A DNA stretch of 64,000 nt, from assembly GCA_001914535.1 (NCBI GenBank), contig MNCR01000052.1, positions 3,791 to 67,790 of the forward strand, in the 5' to 3' direction. This stretch comes from Candidatus Rokubacteria bacterium 13_2_20CM_69_15_1 (GTDB taxonomy: Bacteria > Methylomirabilota > Methylomirabilia > Rokubacteriales > CSP1-6). Below the pieces are notes generated by a model that was not told where the DNA came from, ran no database searches, and saw nothing but the letters and a program-made list of their open reading frames with translations. Positions 4,103-54,829 of the stretch are shown piece after piece. The position numbers and the translations under genes are program-made. The first letter of the stretch is position 1. Each line of letters starts with the position of its first letter.

Positions 4103-5809
4103 TCACGCCCTCCGCGCGAGGGGGCCGCGCAGCAGCTGCCCCGGGAGCGCCCCGCTCGGCTTGCCGTCGCGCAGCACGATCTCGCCGTTCACGACGGTCG
4201 CGGAGATCCCCCGCGCCCGCTGCACGAGGCGGCGGGCTCCCGCCGGGAGATCGTGGGCCACCTCCGGCATCTCCGGCGCGATCGTCTCAGGGTCGAAGAC
4301 GAGGAGATCGGCCCGGAGCCCCTCCCGGATGAGGCCGCGATCCGCAAAGCCCCAGTGCGTCGCCGGCTCGAAGCTCAGCATGCGGACCGCCTGCTCGAGC
4401 GTGAGCGCCTGCTTCGCGCGCACCCAGTGGCTGAGCAAGTGGGTCTGGAGCGAGGCGTCCATGATCTGCGAGACGTGCGCGCCGGAGTCCGAGAAGGTCA
4501 CGACCGTGCGCGGATGCTTGATCAGCTCGAGCGCGTGTGCCTGGTTCTCGTTGGCGATGGGTTGGAGGAAGAACCGCTCGAGGTCGGTCTCGAGAGCGAG
4601 GGCGATCATCGCCTCGACGGGATCCAGGCCGCGCTCGCGCGCGACGTCCGCCACCGAGCGGTGCGGCCCCTCGACGGTGTCGAAGACGAAGATCCACTCG
4701 TAGGCGGCGGGCCGCGGCTCCGCGCCGATAGCGCGCCGCTCGTCGCGCTGGTGCGCGGCCTCGACCAGGCGCCGGCGCAGATCGGGATCGCGCAGGCGGC
4801 GCTTCTGCTCGTCGAGCGGCAGCGCTCTCAGGTCTTTCCAGACTGGCAGCCGGTCGAACGGCAGATTGGTCTTGAACGAGAGCACCACGGCGAGCGCACG
4901 GCTGTGCACCTGGGCGAACATACGGCCGCCCGCGGCGGCCGTCTCCTCGAGCAGGTCGAGGTAGGTCCGCCAGACCTCGGGGTCGTCCCGCCTGCTGAAC
5001 AGGCCCCAGGTCACGGGGCGTCCGCTCTCCACGGCCAGGTCGCGCAACCGCACGTGGTACGCGCGCAGGCCCTCGGGATCGCCGCCGAACCGCTCGCCGG
5101 CGAGCTCGAAGAGCCCCGCATTCATCTCGCCCATGGCGCCGACCAGCCGCCGCACCTCCTCCCAGGTGGCGAGACGGCTCGCGACGGGGCGGCGGTCGGG
5201 GGTCTCGTGGCTCGGCGAGCGCGAGGTCGTGAAGCCGATGGCGCCGGCACGGATCGCGTCGCGGAGCTCGCGCTCCATCGCCCGGAGGTCGTCCTCGGTG
5301 GCGGCTGTCTCGAACGCGCGCTCGCCCATGACGTAGGTGCGCAGGGCGGAGTGGCCGACGTAGCACGCGTAGTTGATGCCCTTGGGCAGGGCGTCGACCC
5401 GATCGAGAAACTCCGGGAACGTGGTCCACGTCCACTCGATGCCCGCGTCCATCGCCTCGGCCGCGATGTCCTCGGCGCGTTCGAGATTGCGCACGACCAG
5501 GTGCCGTTCGGACTTTCCACAGGGCGCGAGCGTGAAGCCGCAGTTGCCCATCACGACGGTGGTGACGCCGTGCCAGCACGAGCAGGTGCCGAGCGGATCC
5601 CAAAAGATCTGCGCGTCCATGTGCGTGTGCCCGTCGACGAAACCGGGCGTCACCGCCTGGCCGTCCGCGTCGATCACCTCGCGCGCGCGCTCGCGGATGC
5701 GGCCGATCGCCGCGATGCGGCCGTGCCGCACGCCGATGTCGGCGGGGAATCGCGGCAAGCCTGACCCGTCGATCACCATGCCGTTCCGGATCACCAGGTC
5801 ATACGGCAT
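4103..5809 (-). CDS. N-acyl-D-amino-acid deacylase (D-aminoacylase) family amidohydrolase
   Basis: 568 aa. N-terminus MPYDLVIRNGMVIDGSG...GFVDGHTHMD is typical of D-aminoacylases. Confidence 0.85.
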   Translation of the reverse strand: MPYDLVIRNGMVIDGSGLPRFPADIGVRHGRIAAIGRIRERAREVIDADGQAVTPGFVDGHTHMDAQIFWDPLGTCSCWHGVTTVVMGNCGFTLAPCGKSERHLVVRNLERAEDIAAEAMDAGIEWTWTTFPEFLDRVDALPKGINYACYVGHSALRTYVMGERAFETAATEDDLRAMERELRDAIRAGAIGFTTSRSPSHETPDRRPVASRLATWEEVRRLVGAMGEMNAGLFELAGERFGGDPEGLRAYHVRLRDLAVESGRPVTWGLFSRRDDPEVWRTYLDLLEETAAAGGRMFAQVHSRALAVVLSFKTNLPFDRLPVWKDLRALPLDEQKRRLRDPDLRRRLVEAAHQRDERRAIGAEPRPAAYEWIFVFDTVEGPHRSVADVARERGLDPVEAMIALALETDLERFFLQPIANENQAHALELIKHPRTVVTFSDSGAHVSQIMDASLQTHLLSHWVRAKQALTLEQAVRMLSFEPATHWGFADRGLIREGLRADLLVFDPETIAPEMPEVAHDLPAGARRLVQRARGISATVVNGEIVLRDGKPSGALPGQLLRGPLARRA

Positions 5810-6972: not shown

Positions 6973-7524
6973 ATGATGCAGAAGTCGTCCGTCCTTCCTG
7001 TCGCCGCCGGGCTAATCATGGCCGCATGCGCGACGATTCCCACCGGGCCGAGCGTAATGGTGCTTCCAGGCAGCGGGAAGCCCTTCGAGCAGTTCCAGGC
7101 AGATGACGCGGTCTGCCGCCAGTGGGCGGCGCAACAGACGGGGACGACGACGGAGCGGGCGTCGACCCGGAGCTCCGTGAGCGGAGCGGCCATCGGGACG
7201 GTGCTCGGAGCGGCTGCCGGGGCAGCGGTGGGCGCCGCCGCCGGGAGTCCAGCGACCGGGGCGGCGGTGGGTGCGGGCGCCGGTTTGCTCGGTGGGACCG
7301 CAGTCGGCGCGAGCAACGCCTGGGGCGCGGAGGCATCGGTGCAGCACCGGTACGACATGACCTACATGCAGTGCATGTACGCCAAGGGCAACCAGATCCC
7401 GGTCAGAGGCTCCCTGCCGACGTACACGCGGCAGCCGGCCGCGACAGCACCGGCTCCGGTTCGCGTTCCACCTCCACCGCCGCCCGGACCTCCGCCGCCC
7501 CCGCCGCCCGGGCTTTCGCGGTAG
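6973..7524 (+). CDS. Glycine-zipper lipoprotein-like protein with proline-rich tail
   Basis: Lipobox-like LIMAAC. Gly-zipper GAAIGTVLGAAAGAAVGAAAG. Conserved C-terminus YMQCMYAKGNQIP. Poly-Pro tail. Confidence 0.5.
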   Translation: MMQKSSVLPVAAGLIMAACATIPTGPSVMVLPGSGKPFEQFQADDAVCRQWAAQQTGTTTERASTRSSVSGAAIGTVLGAAAGAAVGAAAGSPATGAAVGAGAGLLGGTAVGASNAWGAEASVQHRYDMTYMQCMYAKGNQIPVRGSLPTYTRQPAATAPAPVRVPPPPPPGPPPPPPPGLSR

Positions 7525-7566
7525 CGCGCTCATCGAGCAGAGCGGGAAGGCGATGACCCGAGGGAT

Positions 7567-8154
7567 GTGTCAACCAGGAGGCGCCGGATTCGTCAATCAA
7601 GGCGGCTGGACGTGCTGATCGGTGACGCTCCGACCATCGCGGCTCGCTCGCCGACCTATGAGGAGCTCTTCGAGAGGCACGCGGGGCGTCTCCACCGTCT
7701 GTGCGGGCTGCTGCTCGCCGACCGCGACGAGAGCCGAGAGGTCGTGCAGGACGTGTTTCTCAAGCTTCATCAGGCACGTCGTCAGCCCGGTCCGCCGTGC
7801 GACTGGGCCGCGTGGCTGACGCGGGTGGCCGTCAACGCGTGTCGGGATCGCCGGCGCGCGGGTTGGTGGTGGCGGTTTCGGCGACAGAGCGATCGCGTGG
7901 AAGACGTCACGCTCACGAGCAAAGAGCCCACGCCCGAGGAGGCAGCTATCAGCAAAGAGACGTGGCACCGGATCTGGGCGGCCTTTCGCGGCCTGTCCGA
8001 TCGTCAGCGTGACGTTTTCGTCCTGCGACATCTCGAGGGCTGGCCGACCGACGCCGTGGCCAGCACGCTCGGCCTGACTCCGGGAAGCGTCAAGCGCCAT
8101 CTCTTCCGCGCCATCCGGCACCTTCGCACCGCGGCTGTCGGCGACTCGGCATGA
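7567..8154 (+). CDS. ECF-type RNA polymerase sigma-70 factor
   Basis: Region 2 (EELFERHAGRLHRLC...VQDVFLKLH) and region 4 (RQRDVFVLRHLEGWPTDAVASTLGLTPGSVKRHLFRA). Confidence 0.85.
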   Translation: MSTRRRRIRQSRRLDVLIGDAPTIAARSPTYEELFERHAGRLHRLCGLLLADRDESREVVQDVFLKLHQARRQPGPPCDWAAWLTRVAVNACRDRRRAGWWWRFRRQSDRVEDVTLTSKEPTPEEAAISKETWHRIWAAFRGLSDRQRDVFVLRHLEGWPTDAVASTLGLTPGSVKRHLFRAIRHLRTAAVGDSA

Positions 8155-8687
8155 GCCGGTGTCTGTCCGACGCGGCGCTGATTTCACTGCTGGCCGGCGA
8201 CGGCACCGCCGACGAACGCGCTCACATGACGGCGTGTGCCGCCTGCGGCGACCGCCACCGTCGTGTGGGCTCGGAGCTCACGACCGTGAGGCACGTTCTG
8301 CTCGCGACCGACCCGCCCCGGACGCGCGTGGTGGCCCGGACGCGGTCTTGGGCGATCGCCGCCGTCGCGGCCTCGCTCGTCGTCACGCTGGCCGTCTGGG
8401 GTCACGTCGCCATCCGAGGTCCGGACGCGCCGGGTCCGGCGGCGCGGCAACGTGCGGACCATGAGGCGTCCGTGCTCCTGACGGAATTCTCGCTGCCGAT
8501 GTTTTCGACCGACGGGCGCCTGGCCGCGTCCGTCCCGGATGTTGGGGTCCTAAGTCTCTCCGCCGACGCTCTCGACCGCGTCGCGGACTGCGAGTGGCCA
8601 GACTGGGCGGCGACGGCGGGATGCGATGAGACCGCGCACGTGGCCCGACTCCTCGATCTGTTCGAGGCGCCGGACACCGAGCTCTAA
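8151..8687 (+). CDS. Anti-sigma factor (zf-HC2 type, single TM)
   Basis: ATGA overlap with the sigma factor stop. HMTACAACGDRH matches the Hx3Cx2C zinc motif. One TM helix (AIAAVAASLVVTLAVWG). Confidence 0.65.
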   Translation: MSRCLSDAALISLLAGDGTADERAHMTACAACGDRHRRVGSELTTVRHVLLATDPPRTRVVARTRSWAIAAVAASLVVTLAVWGHVAIRGPDAPGPAARQRADHEASVLLTEFSLPMFSTDGRLAASVPDVGVLSLSADALDRVADCEWPDWAATAGCDETAHVARLLDLFEAPDTEL

Positions 8688-44612: not shown

Positions 44613-45035
44613 TCAGCGCCGGATCATGCCGAAGCTGAAGCCTTTGACGAGGTGCTTCTGGATGAGGAAGCCGAGGATCACCACCGGGATCGTCACGACG
44701 GTGCCGATCGCCGCCTGGGGCCCGTAGAGACGCCCCTCCACCGCCGACTGGAACTTGTTGAGGAGGACGGGGAGCGTGAGCACCCTGGGCTGCGAGAGCG
44801 TGAGGGCCAGCAGAAACTCGCTCCAGTTCAGGATGAAGACGAAGAGCAGCGTCACCATCATCCCCGACGCCACGAGCGGGAAGACGACCTTGCGGATCGT
44901 GGCGAGCCGGCTCGCGCCCATCAGCCGCGCGGCGTGCTCGAGCTCGCGGGGCACCTCGTCGATGAAGGCCAGCATCATCCAGATGACGTAGGGCAGCGTG
45001 GTGGCGACGTAGAGGAGGATGAGCCCGTAGGCGGT
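44613..45035 (-). pseudogene. 5'-truncated ABC transporter permease (MalG-like); C-terminal about 140 aa only
   Basis: The EAA loop (EHAARLMGASRLATIRKVVFPL) and the last two TM helices are intact. The frame opens at a TGA at 45036-38 with no upstream permease coding in any frame. No start codon for a full-length protein. Confidence 0.6.
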
Positions 45036-45125
45036 TCAATGACGTGATCGAGTACGGCCACTCTGCACGGCCCAACGTCCTCTGCCCTTCCACGCGGCGA
45101 CAGCCGCCCGCCACGCGTGACGCCA

Positions 45126-45145
45126 TTCCGGAAAAAGTTCCGGAA
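45126..45145. promoter_or_regulatory. Two copies of the palindromic octamer TTCCGGAA, 12 bp centre-to-centre
   Basis: Seen in a roughly 200-bp lower-GC junction between the permease fragment and the histidine kinase gene. A TTGACT -35-like hexamer lies at 45172. Confidence 0.35.
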
Positions 45146-45253
45146 TTTCAAGTACTTACAGAACATTTTTCTTGACTGCGAGACGCCCACCAAGGCAGGG
45201 TACTGAGACGCGATGAACAAAGAGGAGATTTTGAACCTAGTGAAGCAGGCCGC

Positions 45254-48200
45254 GTGAGGATCCCGACGCTCACACACTGGACAAAGGGCGCGCGCGCCGC
45301 CCTCTCGCTGCCGATTCTCCTCGGAGTCGCCATCGGGGTTGTCTACGAGGTCGCCGTGGGTCTCGGATCTGGCGAGGTGCCGCGTCGGTTCGCGATCCCG
45401 TACGCGGTGCCTATCTTCGATACGCCCTTCGCGCTGGTGGCGGTGGGCATCGGCTATCTCTGTCTCGAGCGCCACCGGCTGCGCCAGGACGTCCGTTCGG
45501 CGGGGATGGGGAGCACCCTCTGGCTCACGGCACTCCTCGCGCTCGCCCACATTCTCGCCCAGCCCGATTACCCGGGCACTCCCGGCGTGAACGCGGGCAT
45601 CGCGCCGTACTTCTTCTTCCTGAGCTATCTGGCCGGACTAGCCGGCATCGGCCTGGCGGCCCATTACGGCGACCGAAGCTTCCAGCTGACCGATCGCGCA
45701 CGGTTCGGGATTGGCGCGGTCGTCGTTCTACTCAGCCTGGCCGTCGTCGTGGGCGTCATCGAGGTGCGCCCGCTCCTCCCCGCACTGGTCATGGCCTCGG
45801 GACGATTCACGCCCTTCGGGCTCTGGGCGAGCGGCTTCGTGATCGGCACCGCTGGCGCGTGGGCGTTGTGGGGAGGCCTCCGCCGATACGTCGCGCGTGA
45901 TCCGTTCGCCGGTTACCTGCTCCTCGCCGCGTACATCTGGCTGCTGGGACTGATCGGCGTCATGATCTGCCCTTTCCGGTACAGCATTCCCTGGTACCTC
46001 GCCGGCTTTGCACGCCCCCTCGGTGTGGGCGTCATCTTCGTCGGGTTACTGCGGGAGCAGGTCTGGCTCTACCGGGAGGCGCGCGCGCGGCAGCGGGACC
46101 TCGACGTCCTCCATCGGGCGGGCCAGGCGCTCGTGCGAAGCCTCGACCTCACCGAGATCGCGCGGACGATCGTGACGAAGGCGCTGGAAGTGTCCGGCGC
46201 CGACGGCGCGATTCTCTTTCGGTTCGACGAAGCCGAGCGCGTGCTCGTCGCGATGAGTCACGCCGGTACGATCAGCGAGCAGCTGGTGTCGGGGCTCGAA
46301 CTGCCGCTGGGCCGGGGCGCGTCGGGGATCGCGGTCGCCGAGCGGCGGCCCGTGCTGGCCTCTCTCGCCGAGGACGATCCAGCAGTTCCCTTCCCGCTCG
46401 AGGTCGTGACGCGGATGCGCGGCGAAGGGCTGGAATCGGTGATGGCGATTCCGCTCTCCAGCCAGACGGGTGAGATCTACGGCGCTCTCTCCGTCTTCTA
46501 CCGGCGTGAACACGAATTCACCACCACGGACGTCGAGCTACTCTCGGCGTTCGGCACCCAGGCCTCCGCGGCGATCGAGAACGGGCGATCCTTCGACCGG
46601 CTCACCTTCAAGGCCCGCGACGACGAGGCGCTCCACGAATTCTCCCAACGGCTCCTCGCGGCCAATCGCGAGGAGCCCATTCAGCGGGACGTGATGCGCG
46701 TCACCCGGGAATTGCTCGGCGCCGACTGCGTGGGGCTTTTCCTGTTCGACGCGGTCACGGACTGCCTCCGCCTGGAGGCGGGCCTCGGCTGGCGGCCTGG
46801 CACGGTGGGCGCGGTCACGATCACCCCGTCCGCCGATTCCTTCGCGGGCTATACCTTCCTGCATAAGGCCACCGTCCAGGTCGAGGATCTGTCCCGCGAG
46901 CGCCGCTTCGCGGTCCCGCCCCACCTCGTCGCCCACGACGTCCGGGCGGGCATCGTCGTGCCCCTCGGCGTCCGCGATCAGCCGATCGGTGTCCTCGCGG
47001 CCTACTACCGCGCCTCGCACCGCTTCGGCGACGAAGAGCGCCGCGTCCTCACGAGCCTCGCCCACCAAACCGCGCTCGCGCTGGAAAAGGTCCGGCTCTA
47101 TGCGAAGCTCCAAGCCAACCTGCGTGAGTTGCAGGAGACGCAGGGGCAGCTGATCCAGGCCGACAAGCTGAAGGCACTCGGCACACTCCTGTCCGGGATG
47201 GCCCACGAGCTCAATAATCCGCTGTCCACGATCCAGCTCTCGGTGCAGCTCCTCAAGCGCCAGCACGCCCTGACCGACGCCGTGCGGACACGGATCGACA
47301 TGGTCGAGCGGGAATGCCAACGCGCGGCACAGATCATTCGCGAGCTTCTCGTCTTCGCACGGCGCAAGGCGCCCGAGCGGCGGCGGGTCGACCTCAACGA
47401 GGTCGTGCGCGCCACGCTCAAGCTCCAGGCGCCCGAGTTCGACCTCAGCCGGATCCGCGTGGTGACCGACCTCGATCCGCTCCCGAAGATCTGGGCCGAC
47501 GCCCACCAGCTTCAACAGGTGCTCCTCAACCTCTTCAGCAACGCGATCCACGCCATGAAGTCCACGGGACGGGACGGCGTTCTCACCGTCCGCTCGGCCG
47601 GCCACGACAGTGGGATCTCGATCGTGGTGGAGGACAACGGGCCCGGCATCCGGCCCGAGCACCTCGGGCAGGTCTTCGACCCGTTCTTCACGACGAAAGG
47701 GGTCGGGGAGGGCACGGGCCTCGGCCTCAGCCTCTCCATCGGCATCGTCGAGGCGCACGGCGGACGGATGTCGGTCGAGAACGTCCTGTCCGCGGGCGCG
47801 CGGTTCACGATCCGCCTGCCCTTCGGCCAGGGGGTCGAGGGCGACGAAGCGCCGGCGACGCCGGCCGCGCCCATTGGCAGCGCCCAGATCCTCGTGGTGG
47901 AGGACGAAACGGCGTTGCGTGGCCTCCTCGTGGAGGCCTTCACGACGCTGGGTCATCGGGTTCATGAGGCGGGGACGGGTCGAGCGGCGATCGGCCTCCT
48001 CGAGCACGGGACCTACGACGTGGTGGTGCTCGATCTCATGTTGCCGGACATCGACGGGAGAGGCGTCTGGCAGTGGATCCTCGCTCATCGCCCGGCGCTG
48101 GTGAACCGCGTGATGTTCATGACGGGCGACACGATGAGCGTCGGGTCGCAGCGGTTCCTCGAGGAAACCGGCCGCCCGGTCCTCAACAAGCCCCTGGCGA

Positions 48201-48298
48201 TGGACCGCCTCGGCCAGACGATCGTTGAGGTGCTTGCGGAAGACGCGCACCAGGATCGTGGTCAGGCGTACGCAACGGCTCGTCAATGCGCTTCTTGA
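45254..48298 (+). CDS. Hybrid sensor histidine kinase: polytopic N-terminal membrane domain, GAF domains, HisKA, HATPase_c, C-terminal receiver
   Basis: About 8 predicted TM helices in the first 270 aa. H-box [10 protein letters not shown]. HATPase N/G boxes. Receiver (ILVVEDE...[11 protein letters not shown]). Confidence 0.85.
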
Positions 48299-48912
48299 CC
48301 ACGGGGCAGATCGCGTCCTCCTGTCAGGTGACGATCCCGACAGTCAAGCGGTGGATCCGGGAGGGGCACCTGGCGGCCTTCAAGACTGCCGGCGGTCACT
48401 TCCGGGTCACGGACGCCGAGCTCGAGCGCTTCCAGTCGGTGCTCCACATGCCCGCGACGGCGGTCCACGAAGAGCAGTCTCCGCGCCTCCTCATCGTCGA
48501 CGACGATGCGAGGCTCCTCAACACGCTGGCCGAGATCCTGCGTTTGGACCCGCGATACACCGTGGAAACGGCGCACGACGGTTACGAGGGTCTCATGAAG
48601 GTCGGCACCTTCCGGCCTCACCTCCTGATCCTCGACATCTTCATGCCGGGCCTCGACGGCTTCCACGTTTGCCGCGCCGTCAAAGAGGATCCGGCCACAC
48701 AGCCGACGAAGATCCTCGCGATAACCGGTCACCTCGCAGGCGATGTTCGCGCGCAGAGCTTCGCGGCAGGCGCGGACGCCTTCCTCGAGAAACCACTGCA
48801 GTGGTCAACGCTCAAGACCGAGGTCGACCGCCTCGTCTCGGAGGCCCGTTCGGGGTCGCCCGCGACACTGCTTTCACCATCGACCCCGAAAGGCAAAGGA
48901 GAAACCCGATGA
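48286..48912 (+). CDS. Response regulator with N-terminal excisionase/MerR-type HTH and C-terminal receiver domain
   Basis: [29 protein letters not shown]. Receiver LLIVDDD...[11 protein letters not shown]. Confidence 0.8.
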
Positions 48913-49922
48913 GGCTGACAACGTTCTCGCTTGTGCGCTCTCGCGCGACCGTGGTGGTCGCCATGCTGCTGATTCTGGCGCTCCCCGCGGTCGCCGTCGC
49001 CGGGCTTCTCGGCGGGCTGTTGGGCGTCGTTGGCGGCGTGGTCGGAGGGGTCGTGGGAGTGCTGGCGCCGCCGGTGTCCGGCCCCGGCCCCTTCGTCCTG
49101 CGCTTCGAGCCGACACCCAACCTATACGGGATCCCGAACGGCGCCCTGCCCGCGATCCGGCCGAACTACGCGAGCGCCACGATGCAGATCGGCGTCTCCA
49201 ATGGGCAAACGGACCTGCAGTTCTCCGTGCGTAGCCTGCGTCCGAGGACGATCTACACGATCTGGACCGTGTTCTACCCGCTGGCATGGCCGATCGTGTT
49301 CCCGACGGGGAGCATCAGGCCGGCCTTCGATTCCAGGTTTCCTCAGGGGCCTTCCGGGTTCTACACCGAAGGGGGCGTGGTGGCGCCGACGGCCTCGCTG
49401 TCCGCGCAGTTCACCAACGGGATGGGACTCGACCCGGGCGTCACGTTCGTCACCGACGACTGGGGCAACGGCCAGGTACGCGTGACGTTGGACTACAACG
49501 TTCTTGGGAACACGAACGACGACGGGCCGCCCGTGGGGAACAAGGCCATCGTCACCCAGTGCGTGGTCGATAGCCCCGGACCGCAAAGCGGCCCGTGCCC
49601 CTCGACGAGCGCGATTCAGCGGGTGACGACCACGTGGCTCAGGAAGTACATCGCGCAGGTGCCGGCGGCCGACCGCGCCACGCTCTGCGCCAACTACAAC
49701 TCGTCGGATCCGACCAGTATCTACTGGCAGTGCATCGACCCCGCCACGGTGGACCCCCAGACCGGTAACGGTCTGCCCCGGGTGTGGCGGTTCCCCTTCG
49801 ATCACTTCCGCCTTGCCGCTCATCCCGACGGACTGACGCACGGGTTCATCGGCGGTAACGAGGCCGAGCACGTCATCGACATGGTGGGCCGACGGTGCCA
49901 CCTCACGAACACGTGCCCATGA
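48909..49922 (+). CDS. Secreted/anchored hypothetical protein with GxxxG-rich N-terminal helix and a roughly 280-aa Cys-containing domain of unknown function
   Basis: ATGA-coupled to the response regulator stop. Signal and anchor [51 protein letters not shown]. No recognisable family. Confidence 0.5.
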
Positions 49923-50214
49923 TCGGGGCGGCACGGCGCTGCCCGGGCCCCTTGCACATCTCCTGAGAAGCGCCCGGTGACTCGGAGGGGGCGTCTCACC
50001 GAGGGGCTCCGCCCTCTGGGGCCCCCTCCGAGACCTTTCCCCCGTGGTGACTCCGACGGGCTCCGCGTCTGTGCTATTGTCGCGCTCGCCCGCCCGGCGA
50101 GTGGCGCCGCGGCGGGGGAGGAGCTGCCCGCGGGGCCGACGGACACGCGCGAGGCCCTCGAGGGCCTCAGGATCCGCACGCCGGCGGGCAGGCTCGCGGC
50201 TGAGGGAGGAACGC

Positions 50215-51225
50215 ATGGAGTATCGCGAGCTCGGCAAGACGGGGCTCCGGGTGTCGGCGCTCGGGTTCGGATGCGGCAACGTCGGCGGGCTCATGATCCG
50301 TGGCAGCGCGTCCGAGCGCGAGCGCGCCATCGCGCGGGCGGTGGAGCTGGGGATCAACTACTTCGACACCGCGCCCTCCTACGGCGACGGCCAGTCGGAG
50401 CAGAACCTCGGCGCGGCCGTGCGCTCGCTGCGGGCGTCGGTCTACGTCGGCACGAAGTTCCGCCTGGACGCCGCGGACCTCGGCGCCGTGCCAGGCGCCG
50501 TCAGCCGCTCGCTCGACGCAAGCCTCAAGCGCCTGCGTCGAGAGCACGTCGACCTGCTCCAGCTCCACAACAACATCTTCGCGGAGCGCGCGGGCGAGCC
50601 CGTGAGCGTCGCCGACGTCCTGGACCGGGTGATCCCCGCGCTCCAGACGCTGCAGGGGCAGGGCAAGACGCGCTACTGGGGCATCACGGCGCTCGGAGAG
50701 CCGGCGGCGCTCCACCGCGTGCTCGACACGGCGTCGCTCCACACGGCGCAGGTCTGCTACAACCTGCTCAACCCGAGCGCCGGCGTGGAGGTGGCGCCGG
50801 GATTCCCGGGCCCGGACTTCCGACGCCTGCTCGCCCGGGCGGCGGAGCGACGGGTGGGGGTGATCGTCATCCGCGTGCTCGCCGCGGGTGCGCTGAGCGG
50901 CGCGGCGACCCGCCATCCGGTCGCGGTGCCGACCGTGGAGCCGATCGCCACGGGGCCGGACTACGCGAGCGACGTGCACCGTGCACAAGCGCTGCGGGCG
51001 CTCGTCGAGGAAGGCCACGTGGGGAGCCTCGTCGAGGCGTCGCTCAGGTTTGCGCTGAGCAGCCAGGCCGTCTCCACGGTGCTGCTCGGCTACTCGAGCC
51101 TCGAGCATCTGGAGTACGCGGCCGCCGCCGTGGCCAGGGGTCCGCTCCCCGCGGCGGCGCTCGACCGGCTGTCCACCGTGTGGGCGCGATTCGGGCGTGG
51201 CGCTGCAAGCGGGGGAAGCGCCTGA
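50215..51225 (+). CDS. Aldo/keto reductase
   Basis: ATG after GAGGGAGGA. AKR signatures (GINYFDTAPSYG, catalytic YxxxK). Confidence 0.85.
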   Translation: MEYRELGKTGLRVSALGFGCGNVGGLMIRGSASERERAIARAVELGINYFDTAPSYGDGQSEQNLGAAVRSLRASVYVGTKFRLDAADLGAVPGAVSRSLDASLKRLRREHVDLLQLHNNIFAERAGEPVSVADVLDRVIPALQTLQGQGKTRYWGITALGEPAALHRVLDTASLHTAQVCYNLLNPSAGVEVAPGFPGPDFRRLLARAAERRVGVIVIRVLAAGALSGAATRHPVAVPTVEPIATGPDYASDVHRAQALRALVEEGHVGSLVEASLRFALSSQAVSTVLLGYSSLEHLEYAAAAVARGPLPAAALDRLSTVWARFGRGAASGGSA

Positions 51226-52207: not shown

Positions 52208-52261
52208 CTCTCGGTTCAGGGATCCCTGCGCGGCTTCTCTGGTTTGTTGATTGCGTAGCTG

Positions 52262-52353
52262 CTCATAAGTGAGGGTTACCCACCGGTCCCGGTCGACTCA
52301 TAAGTGAGGGTTACCCACCGGTCCCGGTCGACTCATTAGTCAGGGTTACCGAG
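52262..52353. repeat. 35-bp tandem direct repeat, two perfect copies plus one degenerate: CTCATAAGTGAGGGTTACCCACCGGTCCCGGTCGA
   Basis: Seen directly. Overlaps the 3' end of the transposase ORF. Confidence 0.8.
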
Positions 52354-53579
52354 GCCATCGTCTGGGTGACGTCAGGAGAGGACTGCGCGCGGCGGGTGGC
52401 TATGGAGGGATCCCCGGCGGAGACCCGGGAAGGATCCGGCGCGGCCAAACGCCATAGCCGTTCCAGGGCGGCCTGCAAGTCGCGTTGGAGCTGCAGCGGA
52501 TTGAGGCGGTGATAGAGCGCGTCGAGCTCGGCGCGCTTGGCGGCGCTGAGCACCCCGGCTGCGCACAACCGCTGGTAGGGTGTCTGGGCACGGTCGAACA
52601 CCCGGTGGACGCGCGCGCCGGCCCACTGTTTCCGCACGAGCTTTTCGACGGGCTGGAAGAAGTTCACGTGCAAGCGGGCCAGCGCGTAGACCTGGGCGAG
52701 CTGGGCATAGGCGGCCTTGGACGTGAAGCGATCATAGCCGACGAGGTGGCGCACGATCGCGCCGTTCTTCTGCTCTACCAGCGCGCTGTCATTTTTCTTC
52801 CACGCCCGACCGCGCGTGAAGGTGATGCCCTCGCGCCAGCAGTAGTAGTACAAGACGCGGTTGATGAACTCGGATCCGTTGTCGGTGTCCAGCCCGGCCA
52901 GGGCCACCGGCAGCCGCGTGCGCACGGCCTGCACGCCGGCGGCGACCCGATAGTGGCCTTTGCCCCACAGCGCCTGCAGCTCGATCCAGCTCGTGGCCAC
53001 GTCGACCGCGCACAGGGTATGCAGGTAGAAGCCTTTCGTGCTGCTGCCGCAGTGGGCGACCAGATCGACCTGATAGAAGCCGGGCCGCGCATCGTCCCAG
53101 TCGGCGAACGTGCGGATGGGGATCTGTTGCTTGAGCCAGCTGCTCGGGTGGGTCGTCGCGGCGCCGCGCCGAGGGAACTGCGCCCGAGCCCCCTCGAGCA
53201 AGCGGGCCAAGGTCGGGCGACTGGCTTGCCGCACGAGCTTGTCTACGGCCGGGGGAAGGGTCACTTCGCCACACTGCACGAGCCGGTCGAGCAACTCGGG
53301 CACGAAGGGCTGCAGCCGGTGGGCCCCGATGCGCCCGCTCGCCTGCCAGAGTACGGCCGCGGCCGCCGCCACCTCCGGCCCATACTGGCGCGGGCGGCCG
53401 GAGCGTGGGCGGGCTGCCCCCGTCCTCGTCGCCCGCCGCAACAGCCGGATGGCCGCCTTGCGGTGCATGCGGGTTACTGCCACCATCTCGTCCAACAGCC
53501 GGTGCTTCTCGCTCCGGCTGGCCTGCTGGTACCGCTCGCGCTGCACGGCGGCGTACTCTCGCAAGCTGGCTCGCGTCAC
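52311..53579 (-). CDS. DDE-type transposase (integrase catalytic core; ISNCY/IS481-like)
   Basis: GTG at 53579 after AGGAGG. rve-like catalytic region (FYQVDLVAHCG...LDTDNGSEFINRV...ALVEQKNG). Confidence 0.8.
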   Translation of the reverse strand: MTRASLREYAAVQRERYQQASRSEKHRLLDEMVAVTRMHRKAAIRLLRRATRTGAARPRSGRPRQYGPEVAAAAAVLWQASGRIGAHRLQPFVPELLDRLVQCGEVTLPPAVDKLVRQASRPTLARLLEGARAQFPRRGAATTHPSSWLKQQIPIRTFADWDDARPGFYQVDLVAHCGSSTKGFYLHTLCAVDVATSWIELQALWGKGHYRVAAGVQAVRTRLPVALAGLDTDNGSEFINRVLYYYCWREGITFTRGRAWKKNDSALVEQKNGAIVRHLVGYDRFTSKAAYAQLAQVYALARLHVNFFQPVEKLVRKQWAGARVHRVFDRAQTPYQRLCAAGVLSAAKRAELDALYHRLNPLQLQRDLQAALERLWRLAAPDPSRVSAGDPSIATRRAQSSPDVTQTMASVTLTNESTGTGG

Positions 53580-53666
53580 GGCGGCCTCCTGGGGCGAATT
53601 GGTAACCGTGACTTCTGATCTACGAGCCTCCGTTCGGTAACCGAAATTTTGAGTTGATGCGGATTG

Positions 53667-53695
53667 TTGACACGTGCAAGGCTGCCTTATAGACT
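53667..53695 (+). promoter_or_regulatory. Outward-facing sigma-70-like promoter at the IS right end (TTGACA, 15-17 bp, TATAGACT)
   Basis: Consensus -35, and a reasonable -10, pointing toward genes at 53913 and 54389. Confidence 0.35.
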
Positions 53696-53912
53696 TGCCC
53701 TTCGTGAGAACGCGTTCGGACAATCCTCGAGCGTTTCGTCTCCCCGGTCGTGGCGTCTTCTGACCGCCGACTCAGCGCTCTAATCCGTCCGGCAGCACCA
53801 CGAGTCGTGCGAGATCCGCGGAGGTCTCTGCGCGATCACCGAGCGATCTCTGTCCTCGCCGGTGCCGGCTTGCCCGGCGAGACACGGCGATCCATATCGG
53901 GAGGTTTTTGAA

Positions 53913-54388: not shown

Positions 54389-54829
54389 GTGATGAGTAAC
54401 CCTGTGGCACGCCTGTTGATCGTGGACGATGACGCCGAGTTCGTCGAGAGCCTGAGGGCTTCCCTGGTGGCGTTGGGCTATGAAATCGACCGCTCCTCGC
54501 ACGGTGCAGACGCCCTCATGGCGATTCGCCTGGTGCGTCCTGACGTCGTGCTGCTCGACATCCGGATGCGCGGACTCAGCGGCGTGGAAGTTCTCAAGCG
54601 TATCCGCGCGATGGATAGCAGCATCCCCGTGATCATGGTCACCGCCGCCGACGATCCTGTGCTCATCCGCGAAACGCGCGAGATCGGCGCCTACGGCTAC
54701 CTCGTCAAGCCGATCGAGCTCCATCGCCTGGCGCGGATGGTCGCCGGAGCGGCAACGCTGTCCCGGGGCGAATCGGACAATCGCGTGCGGCTGGTGCCGA
54801 CTGGAGCGAAGAACAGCAGTCCTTCGTGA
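54389..54829 (+). CDS. Single-domain response regulator (CheY-like receiver), orphan
   Basis: LLIVDDD, phospho-acceptor D in VLLDIRMRGLSG, and the VIMVTA/KP motif. Confidence 0.8.
   Translation: MMSNPVARLLIVDDDAEFVESLRASLVALGYEIDRSSHGADALMAIRLVRPDVVLLDIRMRGLSGVEVLKRIRAMDSSIPVIMVTAADDPVLIRETREIGAYGYLVKPIELHRLARMVAGAATLSRGESDNRVRLVPTGAKNSSPS

Follow-up and report, generated by a model that had tools for sequence, protein, structure and literature searches.

Does a gene that closes a three-gene signalling locus take part in the signalling, or does it merely lie next to it? The question is raised by positions 45254-49922 of the 64,000-nucleotide stretch analysed here (the window), which derives from contig MNCR01000052.1 of Candidatus Rokubacteria bacterium 13_2_20CM_69_15_1. 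The locus encodes a hybrid histidine kinase, a response regulator, and a third protein whose gene is referred to below as gene 3. Our answer is that gene 3 is very probably coupled in function to the kinase in some form. More tentatively, we favour a three-component system in which the gene 3 protein would serve the kinase as a co-sensor in the periplasm, probably one that binds metal. The three open reading frames (ORFs) are as follows.

45254-48298, + strand: kinase, GTG start, 1014 amino acids
48286-48912, + strand: response regulator, 208 amino acids
48909-49922, + strand: gene 3, 337 amino acids

When coordinates and overlaps were reread, all three frames were found where the initial annotation had placed them. 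Those of the kinase and regulator overlap by 13 nucleotides (48286-48298), as read from the sequence, and the ATGA at 48909-48912 serves as both the regulator stop and the gene 3 start, ahead of which lies a Shine-Dalgarno element, AAAGGAGAAA, at 48895. The earlier claim that the genes are co-transcribed is backed, as far as sequence permits, by these overlapping frames and by the presence of a single AT-rich region upstream.

Gene 3 follows the membrane domain of the kinase

Gene 3 neighbourhoods were read in 27 loci (loci are cited by L numbers where they need to be told apart) and scored by tblastn with the window proteins split into domains. At ≤90% identity, the gene 3 members fall into 26 distinct clusters. 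Co-occurrence with two-component genes, which had been set as a test when the locus was first described, proved strongly positive: all 26 clusters adjoin a kinase homologue. In 25 of them the gap is 15-630 bp; in the remaining one it measures 1.6 kb and holds one further gene. The kinase is upstream on the same strand in 11 clusters, downstream and convergent in another 11, and downstream on the same strand in 4, and the genes that flank these modules are wholly different between loci. The linkage of gene 3 to membrane-domain kinases is thus established as rearrangement-proof, and since this pattern of adjacency would not be expected otherwise, it argues for selection for linkage. In the reverse sampling, 80 metagenome loci were fetched with the kinase membrane domain as the sole bait; 34 had enough flanking DNA to be informative, and 30 of these carry gene 3.

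The constant part of the kinases at gene 3 loci is the membrane domain, with 54-87% identity. Their cytoplasmic part varies, having two, one or no GAF domains, in kinases of about 1010, 813 and 533 amino acids. The regulator varies as well: it is of the HTH_17-REC type (an excisionase/MerR-like helix-turn-helix domain followed by a receiver) in the window clade and in the convergent class, and in one large clade the kinase is preceded by a LuxR-type regulator and a receiver-like protein instead. There, the stop codon of the kinase gene and the start codon of gene 3 overlap. By these comparisons, the invariant partner of gene 3 is the kinase, namely its membrane domain, and not the HTH_17 regulator, which corrects the initial annotation.

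Several variants of the module were observed along the way. In L007 (5201-6715), the short kinase (no GAF, 533 amino acids) is preceded by a stand-alone HTH_17 protein of 95 amino acids that replaces the full regulator, beside which are three small ORFs with no Pfam match. Two gene 3 paralogues surround one kinase in L008 (1718-2635, + strand; 7272-8189, - strand) and in L094 (6255-7112 and 9139-9903, both - strand), and in L008 the gene of a YeiH-like membrane protein (PF03601) separates the kinase from gene 3. The metagenome-assembled genomes (MAGs) AR15, AR7 and AR_45 each contain two or three gene 3-kinase modules that are separate from one another.

A locus with a regulator 64% identical to that of the window provides a view of what may be an older version of the system. 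Its kinase is a soluble GAF kinase with no membrane domain, there is no gene 3, and a single-domain receiver occupies the slot. Loci L001, L009, L010 and L116-L119 have the order acyl-CoA dehydrogenase, HTH_17-REC regulator, gene 3 or single receiver, and convergent kinase, after which come a Peripla_BP_6 binding protein and a Liv-type ATP-binding cassette (ABC) transporter; the window does not have this order. Since the soluble-kinase locus and several gene 3 loci share this wider gene order, the comparison suggests a joint addition of the membrane domain and gene 3 to an older cytoplasmic system. The same shared order hints that the ancestral system controls organic acid uptake and catabolism. 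A 322-residue ORF beside a distant MASE3-like kinase in L116 was also considered; it is not a gene 3 relative and looks spurious.

The gene 3 protein and its family

Three segments were recognised in the gene 3 protein.

48909-49001, + strand: Sec-type signal peptide, residues 1-31, ending in AVA; n-h-c pattern with AxA, cleavage predicted
49002-49064, + strand: Gly/Leu/Val-rich hydrophobic segment with glycine-zipper-like spacing, residues 32-52; possible membrane tether
49083-49919, + strand: exported beta-rich domain, residues 59-337, from alignment, AlphaFold and Foldseek

All 74 aligned gene 3 homologues begin with a Sec-type signal peptide that ends in an AxA site. The protein had originally been described as having a signal or anchor helix packed with GxxxG repeats. 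The GxxxG-like stretch (residues 32-50) is indeed present, but it sits after the signal-peptidase motif (AVA/G) and is specific to one clade, that of ≥68% identity, and is therefore not a trait of the family. The other clades have a plain Sec signal peptide followed by short Gly/Asn linkers or by none, and the idea of a family-wide membrane anchor was rejected on this ground. The segment, in which AlphaFold confidence is below 50, is a lineage-specific addition that possibly tethers the protein to the membrane.

The six Cys residues noted at the outset are at positions 218, 230, 260, 275, 330 and 336, and 70-74 of the 74 homologues share four of these, a pattern that would fit disulfides; together with the signal peptide these conserved Cys predict an extracytoplasmic protein. 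Among the residues that are invariant in the 74 sequences are W119, D175, R245, H299, R301, H305, D307, H311 and H321, and also C230 and C275. The cluster of invariant His and Asp suggests a metal as the ligand, and the several invariant Arg would suit an oxyanion.

That the protein belongs to no recognisable family was borne out: there was no match in Pfam (E≤0.1) or NCBIfam, and sequence and profile searches of the PDB were empty even at E≤10. A word-indexed search retrieved 129 relatives, all unnamed or 'hypothetical'; where a source is named, it belongs to the Methylomirabilota or Rokubacteria. When 1.84 billion cluster-representative proteins were searched exhaustively with a profile, 129 were found at E≤0.001, 29 of them at E≤1e-30, and the weaker hits constitute a sister family of secreted proteins of 240-330 amino acids. 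Judged from these searches, the gene 3 family itself is confined to Rokubacteria/Methylomirabilota metagenomes. The nearest genome matches to the locus are Candidatus Rokuibacteriota MAGs, with gene 3 protein identity of up to 92%, and several soil metagenome contigs have 99% DNA identity to the window.

The kinase and the response regulator

The domains of the two signalling proteins were assigned as follows.

45254-46123, + strand: kinase membrane sensor domain with eight transmembrane segments, MASE3-related, residues 1-290 (hydropathy and Pfam)
46142-47083, + strand: two cytoplasmic GAF domains of the kinase, residues 297-442 and 476-610 (Pfam)
47177-47827, + strand: kinase core, HisKA (residues 642-706) and HATPase_c (residues 749-858) (Pfam, motifs)
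47888-48223, + strand: fused receiver (REC) of the kinase, residues 879-990 (Pfam, acceptor motif)
48292-48435, + strand: HTH_17 (excisionase/MerR-like) domain of the regulator, residues 3-50 (Pfam)
48490-48825, + strand: C-terminal REC of the regulator, residues 69-180 (Pfam)

The kinase scored 52 bits for HisKA, 87 bits for HATPase_c and 59 bits for Response_reg, and its motifs are intact (HELNNP at 651, NLFSNA at 759, DNGPG at 794, GTGLGL at 820 and DLMLPD at 927). With the H-box His, the N, G1 and G2 boxes and the acceptor Asp of a fused receiver all recognisable in its sequence, it is a hybrid histidine kinase. Hydropathy reveals eight transmembrane segments, with positive charge in the cytoplasmic loops and a length of 7-15 residues for the periplasmic ones; hydropathy and Pfam together confirmed that the sensor consists of an integral-membrane part and GAF modules, with no periplasmic domain. 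The match to MASE3 (PF17159) in the window kinase is 16.7 bits (E 0.006), which is under the Pfam gathering threshold of 31 bits. Among homologues, the score is 20.4 bits in L015 and 34.2 bits, over the threshold, in L007, and precomputed MASE3 matches exist for the L007 and L009 kinases. The periplasmic loops are among the most conserved parts of the membrane domain; loop 2 (QPDYPxTPGVN) is 55% invariant in the alignment, which equals or tops every other segment. Invariant His, Cys, Tyr and Trp residues are also found in the membrane domain.

The regulator scored 78 bits for Response_reg and 34.3 bits for HTH_17 (cut-off 27), and its receiver motifs are intact (DD at 72-74, LDIFMP at 116, T and K). 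The N-terminal excisionase-type helix-turn-helix and C-terminal receiver were thus as first described. The arrangement had been called unusual, and it is indeed non-canonical, yet it is common, having more than 500 relatives and occurring frequently in soil metagenomes.

Predicted fold and the sister family

The AlphaFold model of the gene 3 protein, made with the 74-sequence alignment, is almost all beta, with a predicted local distance difference test score (pLDDT) of 83 and a predicted template modelling score of 0.79. When it was compared with the PDB by Foldseek, Cu/Zn superoxide dismutase (SOD) and the SOD-like domain of the copper chaperone CCS made up the majority of the top 50 matches, at weak scores (best E 0.017; TM-score 0.37-0.55 relative to target length). 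For the sister family, modelled independently (pLDDT 88), the SOD match was the same and slightly stronger (E 0.0024, probability 1.0). The models weakly suggest an SOD-like Greek-key core into which about 100 amino acids, with the four conserved Cys among them, are inserted.

In Cu/Zn SOD, copper is bound by His46, 48, 63 and 120, and zinc by His63, 71, 80 and Asp83. A profile alignment by hhalign to four SOD sequences gave probabilities of 0.6-11%, which are not significant, with the N-terminal half in a sensible strand register. In this weak register, which is indicative only, SOD His46 falls on the invariant W119 and His48 on a variable aliphatic residue, and the zinc-loop equivalent has no His residues. 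The canonical SOD metal ligands thus appear to be absent from the gene 3 family. A visual match of the H305 motif to the His120...G-G-N-E of SOD1 was dropped, as hhalign on the isolated C-terminal block lent it no support. Sod_Cu (PF00080) matched neither gene 3 (E≤0.1) nor any of 57 sister-family members (E≤10); Pfam hits to these 57 at the latter threshold were scattered noise, the commonest being RskA_C in 3 members (E 0.022). Likewise, CHRD (PF07452) gave no Pfam match, and the top Foldseek matches included no chordin CHRD structure. The initial annotation had stated that clear homology to a known enzyme family, with no co-occurrence with two-component systems, would speak against its proposal. 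What was found is a weak SOD-like fold with the catalytic ligands apparently absent, at loci where a kinase is always adjacent.

Homology between the gene 3 family and the sister family was given a probability of 99.8% by hhalign, and the two have in common the motifs G-x-G-L-D-P-N...T-D..G and H-x-D-G-x-T-H-G. One named source of the sister family is a Blastocatellia (Acidobacteria) MAG. Six of its genomic contexts were read, of which one (P0158) is on a 1.6-kb contig and too short to inform. In three of the six, the divergent neighbour encodes a protein of about 650 amino acids with an N-terminal OmpR-type winged helix (Trans_reg_C), one transmembrane helix and external TPR. These bitopic regulators and the copper-related clusters found near other distant relatives are located as follows.

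L034 4835-6781, - strand; L035 4763-6721, - strand; and the contig of P0279: ToxR/CadC-like bitopic regulators beside the sister family
L029/L030 999-4213; L031 7865-11119; L033 5169-7868: cluster of multicopper oxidase, SCO1/SenC and a secreted protein of 256-277 amino acids

The gene 3 superfamily therefore recurs beside transmembrane signalling proteins, and at times beside copper-handling genes. TonB-dependent-receptor-like genes are often near the pairs of sister family and bitopic regulator. The secreted 256-277-residue proteins of the copper clusters form a conserved family with no Pfam match; they were considered as members of the gene 3 family and rejected.

Co-sensor or effector?

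If the gene 3 protein is a co-sensor, it would be exported by the Sec route to the periplasm and fold there as a disulfide-stabilised, SOD-shaped beta-barrel, in which the cluster of H299, R301, H305, D307, H311 and H321 would probably bind a metal ion or other small ligand. Ligand-dependent contact with the loops or helices of the kinase would then alter kinase activity, and in the window clade the Gly/Leu/Val-rich tether may aid this contact. From the membrane the signal would travel by way of the paired GAF domains to the HisKA/HATPase core, on to the fused receiver and finally to the HTH_17-REC regulator, which may act at tandem TTCCGGAA sites ahead of the operon. We favour this reading because the linkage tracks the membrane domain and not the DNA-binding regulator, because the kinase itself lacks a periplasmic domain, because the soluble-kinase relative is without gene 3, because the gene 3 protein bears no enzyme signature, and because the genes are translationally coupled. 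The conserved periplasmic loops, and the ToxR-like regulators in three of the six sister-family contexts, were also counted in its favour.

Several observations weigh against it. In three kinase-seeded loci, gene 3 is replaced by a gene for a secreted vanadium-haloperoxidase-like protein of 560-600 amino acids, and in two contigs most of it is deleted.

L105 8998-10800, - strand; L114 3993-5669, - strand; L109 3779-4897, - strand: vanadium-haloperoxidase-like gene
48878-49743, + strand: segment between 11-bp direct repeats CATCGACCCCG (48878 and 49733), deleted in two contigs (blastn, junctions)

The complete haloperoxidase-like copies in L105 and L114 match VCPO_N, DUF6851, VCPO_2nd and PAP2, and the truncated copy in L109 shares the C-terminal sequence. 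The kinases at these loci are closely related, with unchanged periplasmic loops, and such a swap is easier to explain as one of exchangeable output enzymes than as one of exchangeable co-sensors. The two deletion contigs, L036 (junction at 5040-5110) and L038 (9550-9615), are 99% identical to the window and are missing the roughly 860 bp between the CATCGACCCCG repeats. Codons 1-277 of gene 3 are gone, while the kinase and regulator are intact, the C-terminal tail of the latter being slightly altered. The repeats are too short for assembly collapse, and the two contigs are independent; the deletion thus appears to be a natural gene 3-null variant. At the kinase locus of L092, furthermore, there is a regulator only and no partner. 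As L092 and the deletion contigs keep the kinase without gene 3, the kinase is not strictly dependent on it. Two of the six sister-family contexts are 1-2 kb from multicopper oxidase and SCO1/SenC genes, which fits a metal-handling effector. Finally, the fold match is weak (E 0.002-0.02; TM-score 0.4-0.5 on the length of the SOD target), the metal binding, physical contact and direction of signalling are all inferred, and the family is from a single phylum, such that part of the linkage could reflect inherited synteny.

A regulated periplasmic effector is nearly as likely as a co-sensor. Such an effector would be metal-binding or redox-protective, with a role like that of SilE, CusF or PcoE; its expression would be governed by the kinase and regulator, and the kinase would sense the stress itself through its membrane or GAF domains. 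The exchange for a haloperoxidase-like enzyme does look like an exchange of outputs, the variants that retain kinase and regulator in the absence of gene 3 and the nearness of distant relatives to copper-handling clusters are what this explanation would lead one to expect, and gene 3 has a good ribosome-binding site of its own. The modelled fold, too, resembles that of an antioxidant metalloenzyme. However, the SOD catalytic ligands are apparently absent, the linkage follows the membrane domain of the kinase and persists where the regulator is of another type or none is adjacent, and a soluble-kinase locus devoid of gene 3 is not predicted by an output model.

It is improbable, in our estimate, that the gene 3 protein is a divergent SOD-like enzyme that acts on reactive oxygen or metal species to yield a product sensed by the kinase, the haloperoxidase-like proteins being signal-generating likewise. 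Both alternative partners do have folds known from oxidant chemistry, the many invariant His, Asp and Arg of gene 3 are reminiscent of active sites, and the invariant His, Cys, Tyr and Trp of the membrane domain could react with oxidants. On the other hand, the protein carries none of the catalytic motifs of known enzyme families, the aligned register shows no conservation of the SOD ligands, and the idea rests on a fold resemblance and one kind of gene swap. Less probable still is the absence of any functional tie, with gene 3 kept by the kinase through shared descent in one phylum: the restriction of the family to Rokubacteria/Methylomirabilota and the close relatedness of many loci would allow it, but the adjacency holds in three different arrangements of order and strand, where paralogues have been duplicated within a genome and where the flanking genes have been fully replaced, and start and stop codons overlap.

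Upstream region and surroundings of the operon

The G+C content of the window is about 70%, and the block upstream of the kinase is AT-rich. Two elements were distinguished in it.

45126-45145, + strand: tandem palindromic octamers TTCCGGAA, 2 copies, 12 bp from start to start; candidate operator
45147-45178, + strand: AT-rich promoter-proximal block TTCAAGTACTTAC ... CTTGACTG (-35-like), conserved across loci

There are no copies of TTCCGGAA in the 64-kb window besides these two, and the chance expectation of the full palindrome is 0.01. Its position is unchanged in L040 and L041 (kinase identity 85-87%), and related palindromes (ATTCCGG...CCGGAAT) precede the first gene of the module in L009, L010 and L020. 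Downstream of the tandem octamers come TTCAAGTACTTAC and then a TTGAC element; the block order TTCAAGTACTTAC ... CTTGACTG is the same in L001, L008, L009, L020, L040 and L041. The octamers are possibly an operator bound by the HTH_17 regulator, which would imply autoregulation. The alternative that the first palindrome is a terminator of the upstream gene was rejected for the window, since that gene is divergent. A scan for the sigma-70 consensus upstream of the kinase found no full promoter, no convincing terminator was seen 3' of gene 3, and an Rfam scan of 44800-50300 returned no RNA element.

Some features of the surroundings may be added. Between the equivalents of window positions 45035 and 45075, L039 carries an additional 3.07 kb (L039 75-3143) that encodes a solute-binding protein and an ABC permease. 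In the window, a C-terminal permease fragment of 121 amino acids (44613-44978, - strand) is retained beside a MalK-like ATPase; thus, a sugar-type ABC operon upstream of the kinase promoter has been truncated in this strain. An insertion sequence (IS) of about 1.4 kb is located at 52254-53661, 2.3 kb downstream of the operon, with a transposase ORF at 52311-53723 (- strand) that has a weak match to the rve integrase core (30.5 bits; cut-off 32.6). It is present in the window and L038 and missing from L036, in which the flanks are joined at GGTTTGTTGATTGTTGACACG, and is therefore an insertion polymorphism. Downstream of it, a receiver-domain-like stretch (54410-54742, + strand) has 30% identity to the receiver of the regulator.

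Significance and comparison with known systems

Rokubacteria, uncultured and with large genomes, abound in soil, and a recurrent, paralogised sensory module informs how they read their environment. Polytopic sensor domains of the MASE type are widespread, and the way in which they receive signals is little understood; in the literature searched, no paper was found that describes a ligand or partner for MASE3. The strict linkage of a secreted protein to a domain of this kind offers a concrete, biochemically testable hypothesis. If the co-sensor reading is true, gene 3 would be the first identified partner of MASE3 and define a signal route for it, and the Rokubacteria would possess a heavily paralogised three-component system. 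If the effector reading is true, the locus would be a stress-response operon of an ordinary kind whose periplasmic protein is new. The gene 3 family, with its roughly 130 members, has no Pfam or NCBIfam model; next to it stands an uncharacterised sister family, and the two would represent an apparent reuse of the SOD scaffold without its catalytic metals.

In this last respect the protein is similar to domain II of CCS and the CHRD of chordin (PMC13382577), where the SOD scaffold is likewise apparently kept and the catalytic metal ligands lost. Compared with SOD itself, it is twice the size, has the four-Cys insertion, and bears a different cluster of invariant His, Asp and Arg. A broader scheme can be drawn from this, which we regard as rather doubtful: an exported SOD-fold family would have lost the dismutase site, gained a new His/Asp/Arg site and become a periplasmic input module for MASE3-type domains, the sister family would do the same for ToxR-like regulators in Acidobacteria, and the SOD scaffold would then be a recurrent bacterial sensor module, comparable to the eukaryotic CHRD.

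Among periplasmic metal-binding outputs, SilE with silRS, CusF with cusRS and PcoE with pcoRS are accompanied by OmpR-type regulators. They resemble the gene 3 protein in being small exported His-rich proteins encoded next to a kinase-regulator pair, and distant relatives of gene 3 are found near copper enzymes and a copper chaperone. Their folds are different, however, and the linkage of gene 3 follows the membrane domain of the kinase. LiaFSR, BceRS-AB, YycFGHI and SaePQRS are intramembrane-sensing kinases with accessory proteins that are often translationally coupled. Here too, a kinase with no sizeable extracytoplasmic domain has a co-transcribed partner gene. Kinases of the LiaFSR type, however, have two transmembrane segments and Firmicute-type partners (membrane proteins, ABC transporters), whereas the present kinase is an eight-segment, MASE3-like protein with GAF domains, and its partner is predicted to be a soluble exported beta-barrel. 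With the MASE3 (PF17159) proteins it shares a polytopic N-terminal sensor on a histidine kinase, but the domain in the window scores below the threshold.

In its logic the module also resembles the redox-sensing HbpS-SenS-SenR system of Streptomyces, where the secreted HbpS is reported to be an octamer with haem and iron as ligands and to serve as the sensory component (PMC4991794, PMC3754957). There, as here, the genes of a membrane-embedded kinase and its regulator have that of a secreted accessory protein beside them. The gene 3 model does not resemble HbpS, however, and the kinase and regulator families differ. Overall, the module follows the logic of known systems, and its components, namely a MASE3-like, eight-transmembrane GAF hybrid kinase, an HTH_17-REC regulator, and an exported protein of predicted SOD fold, differ from theirs.

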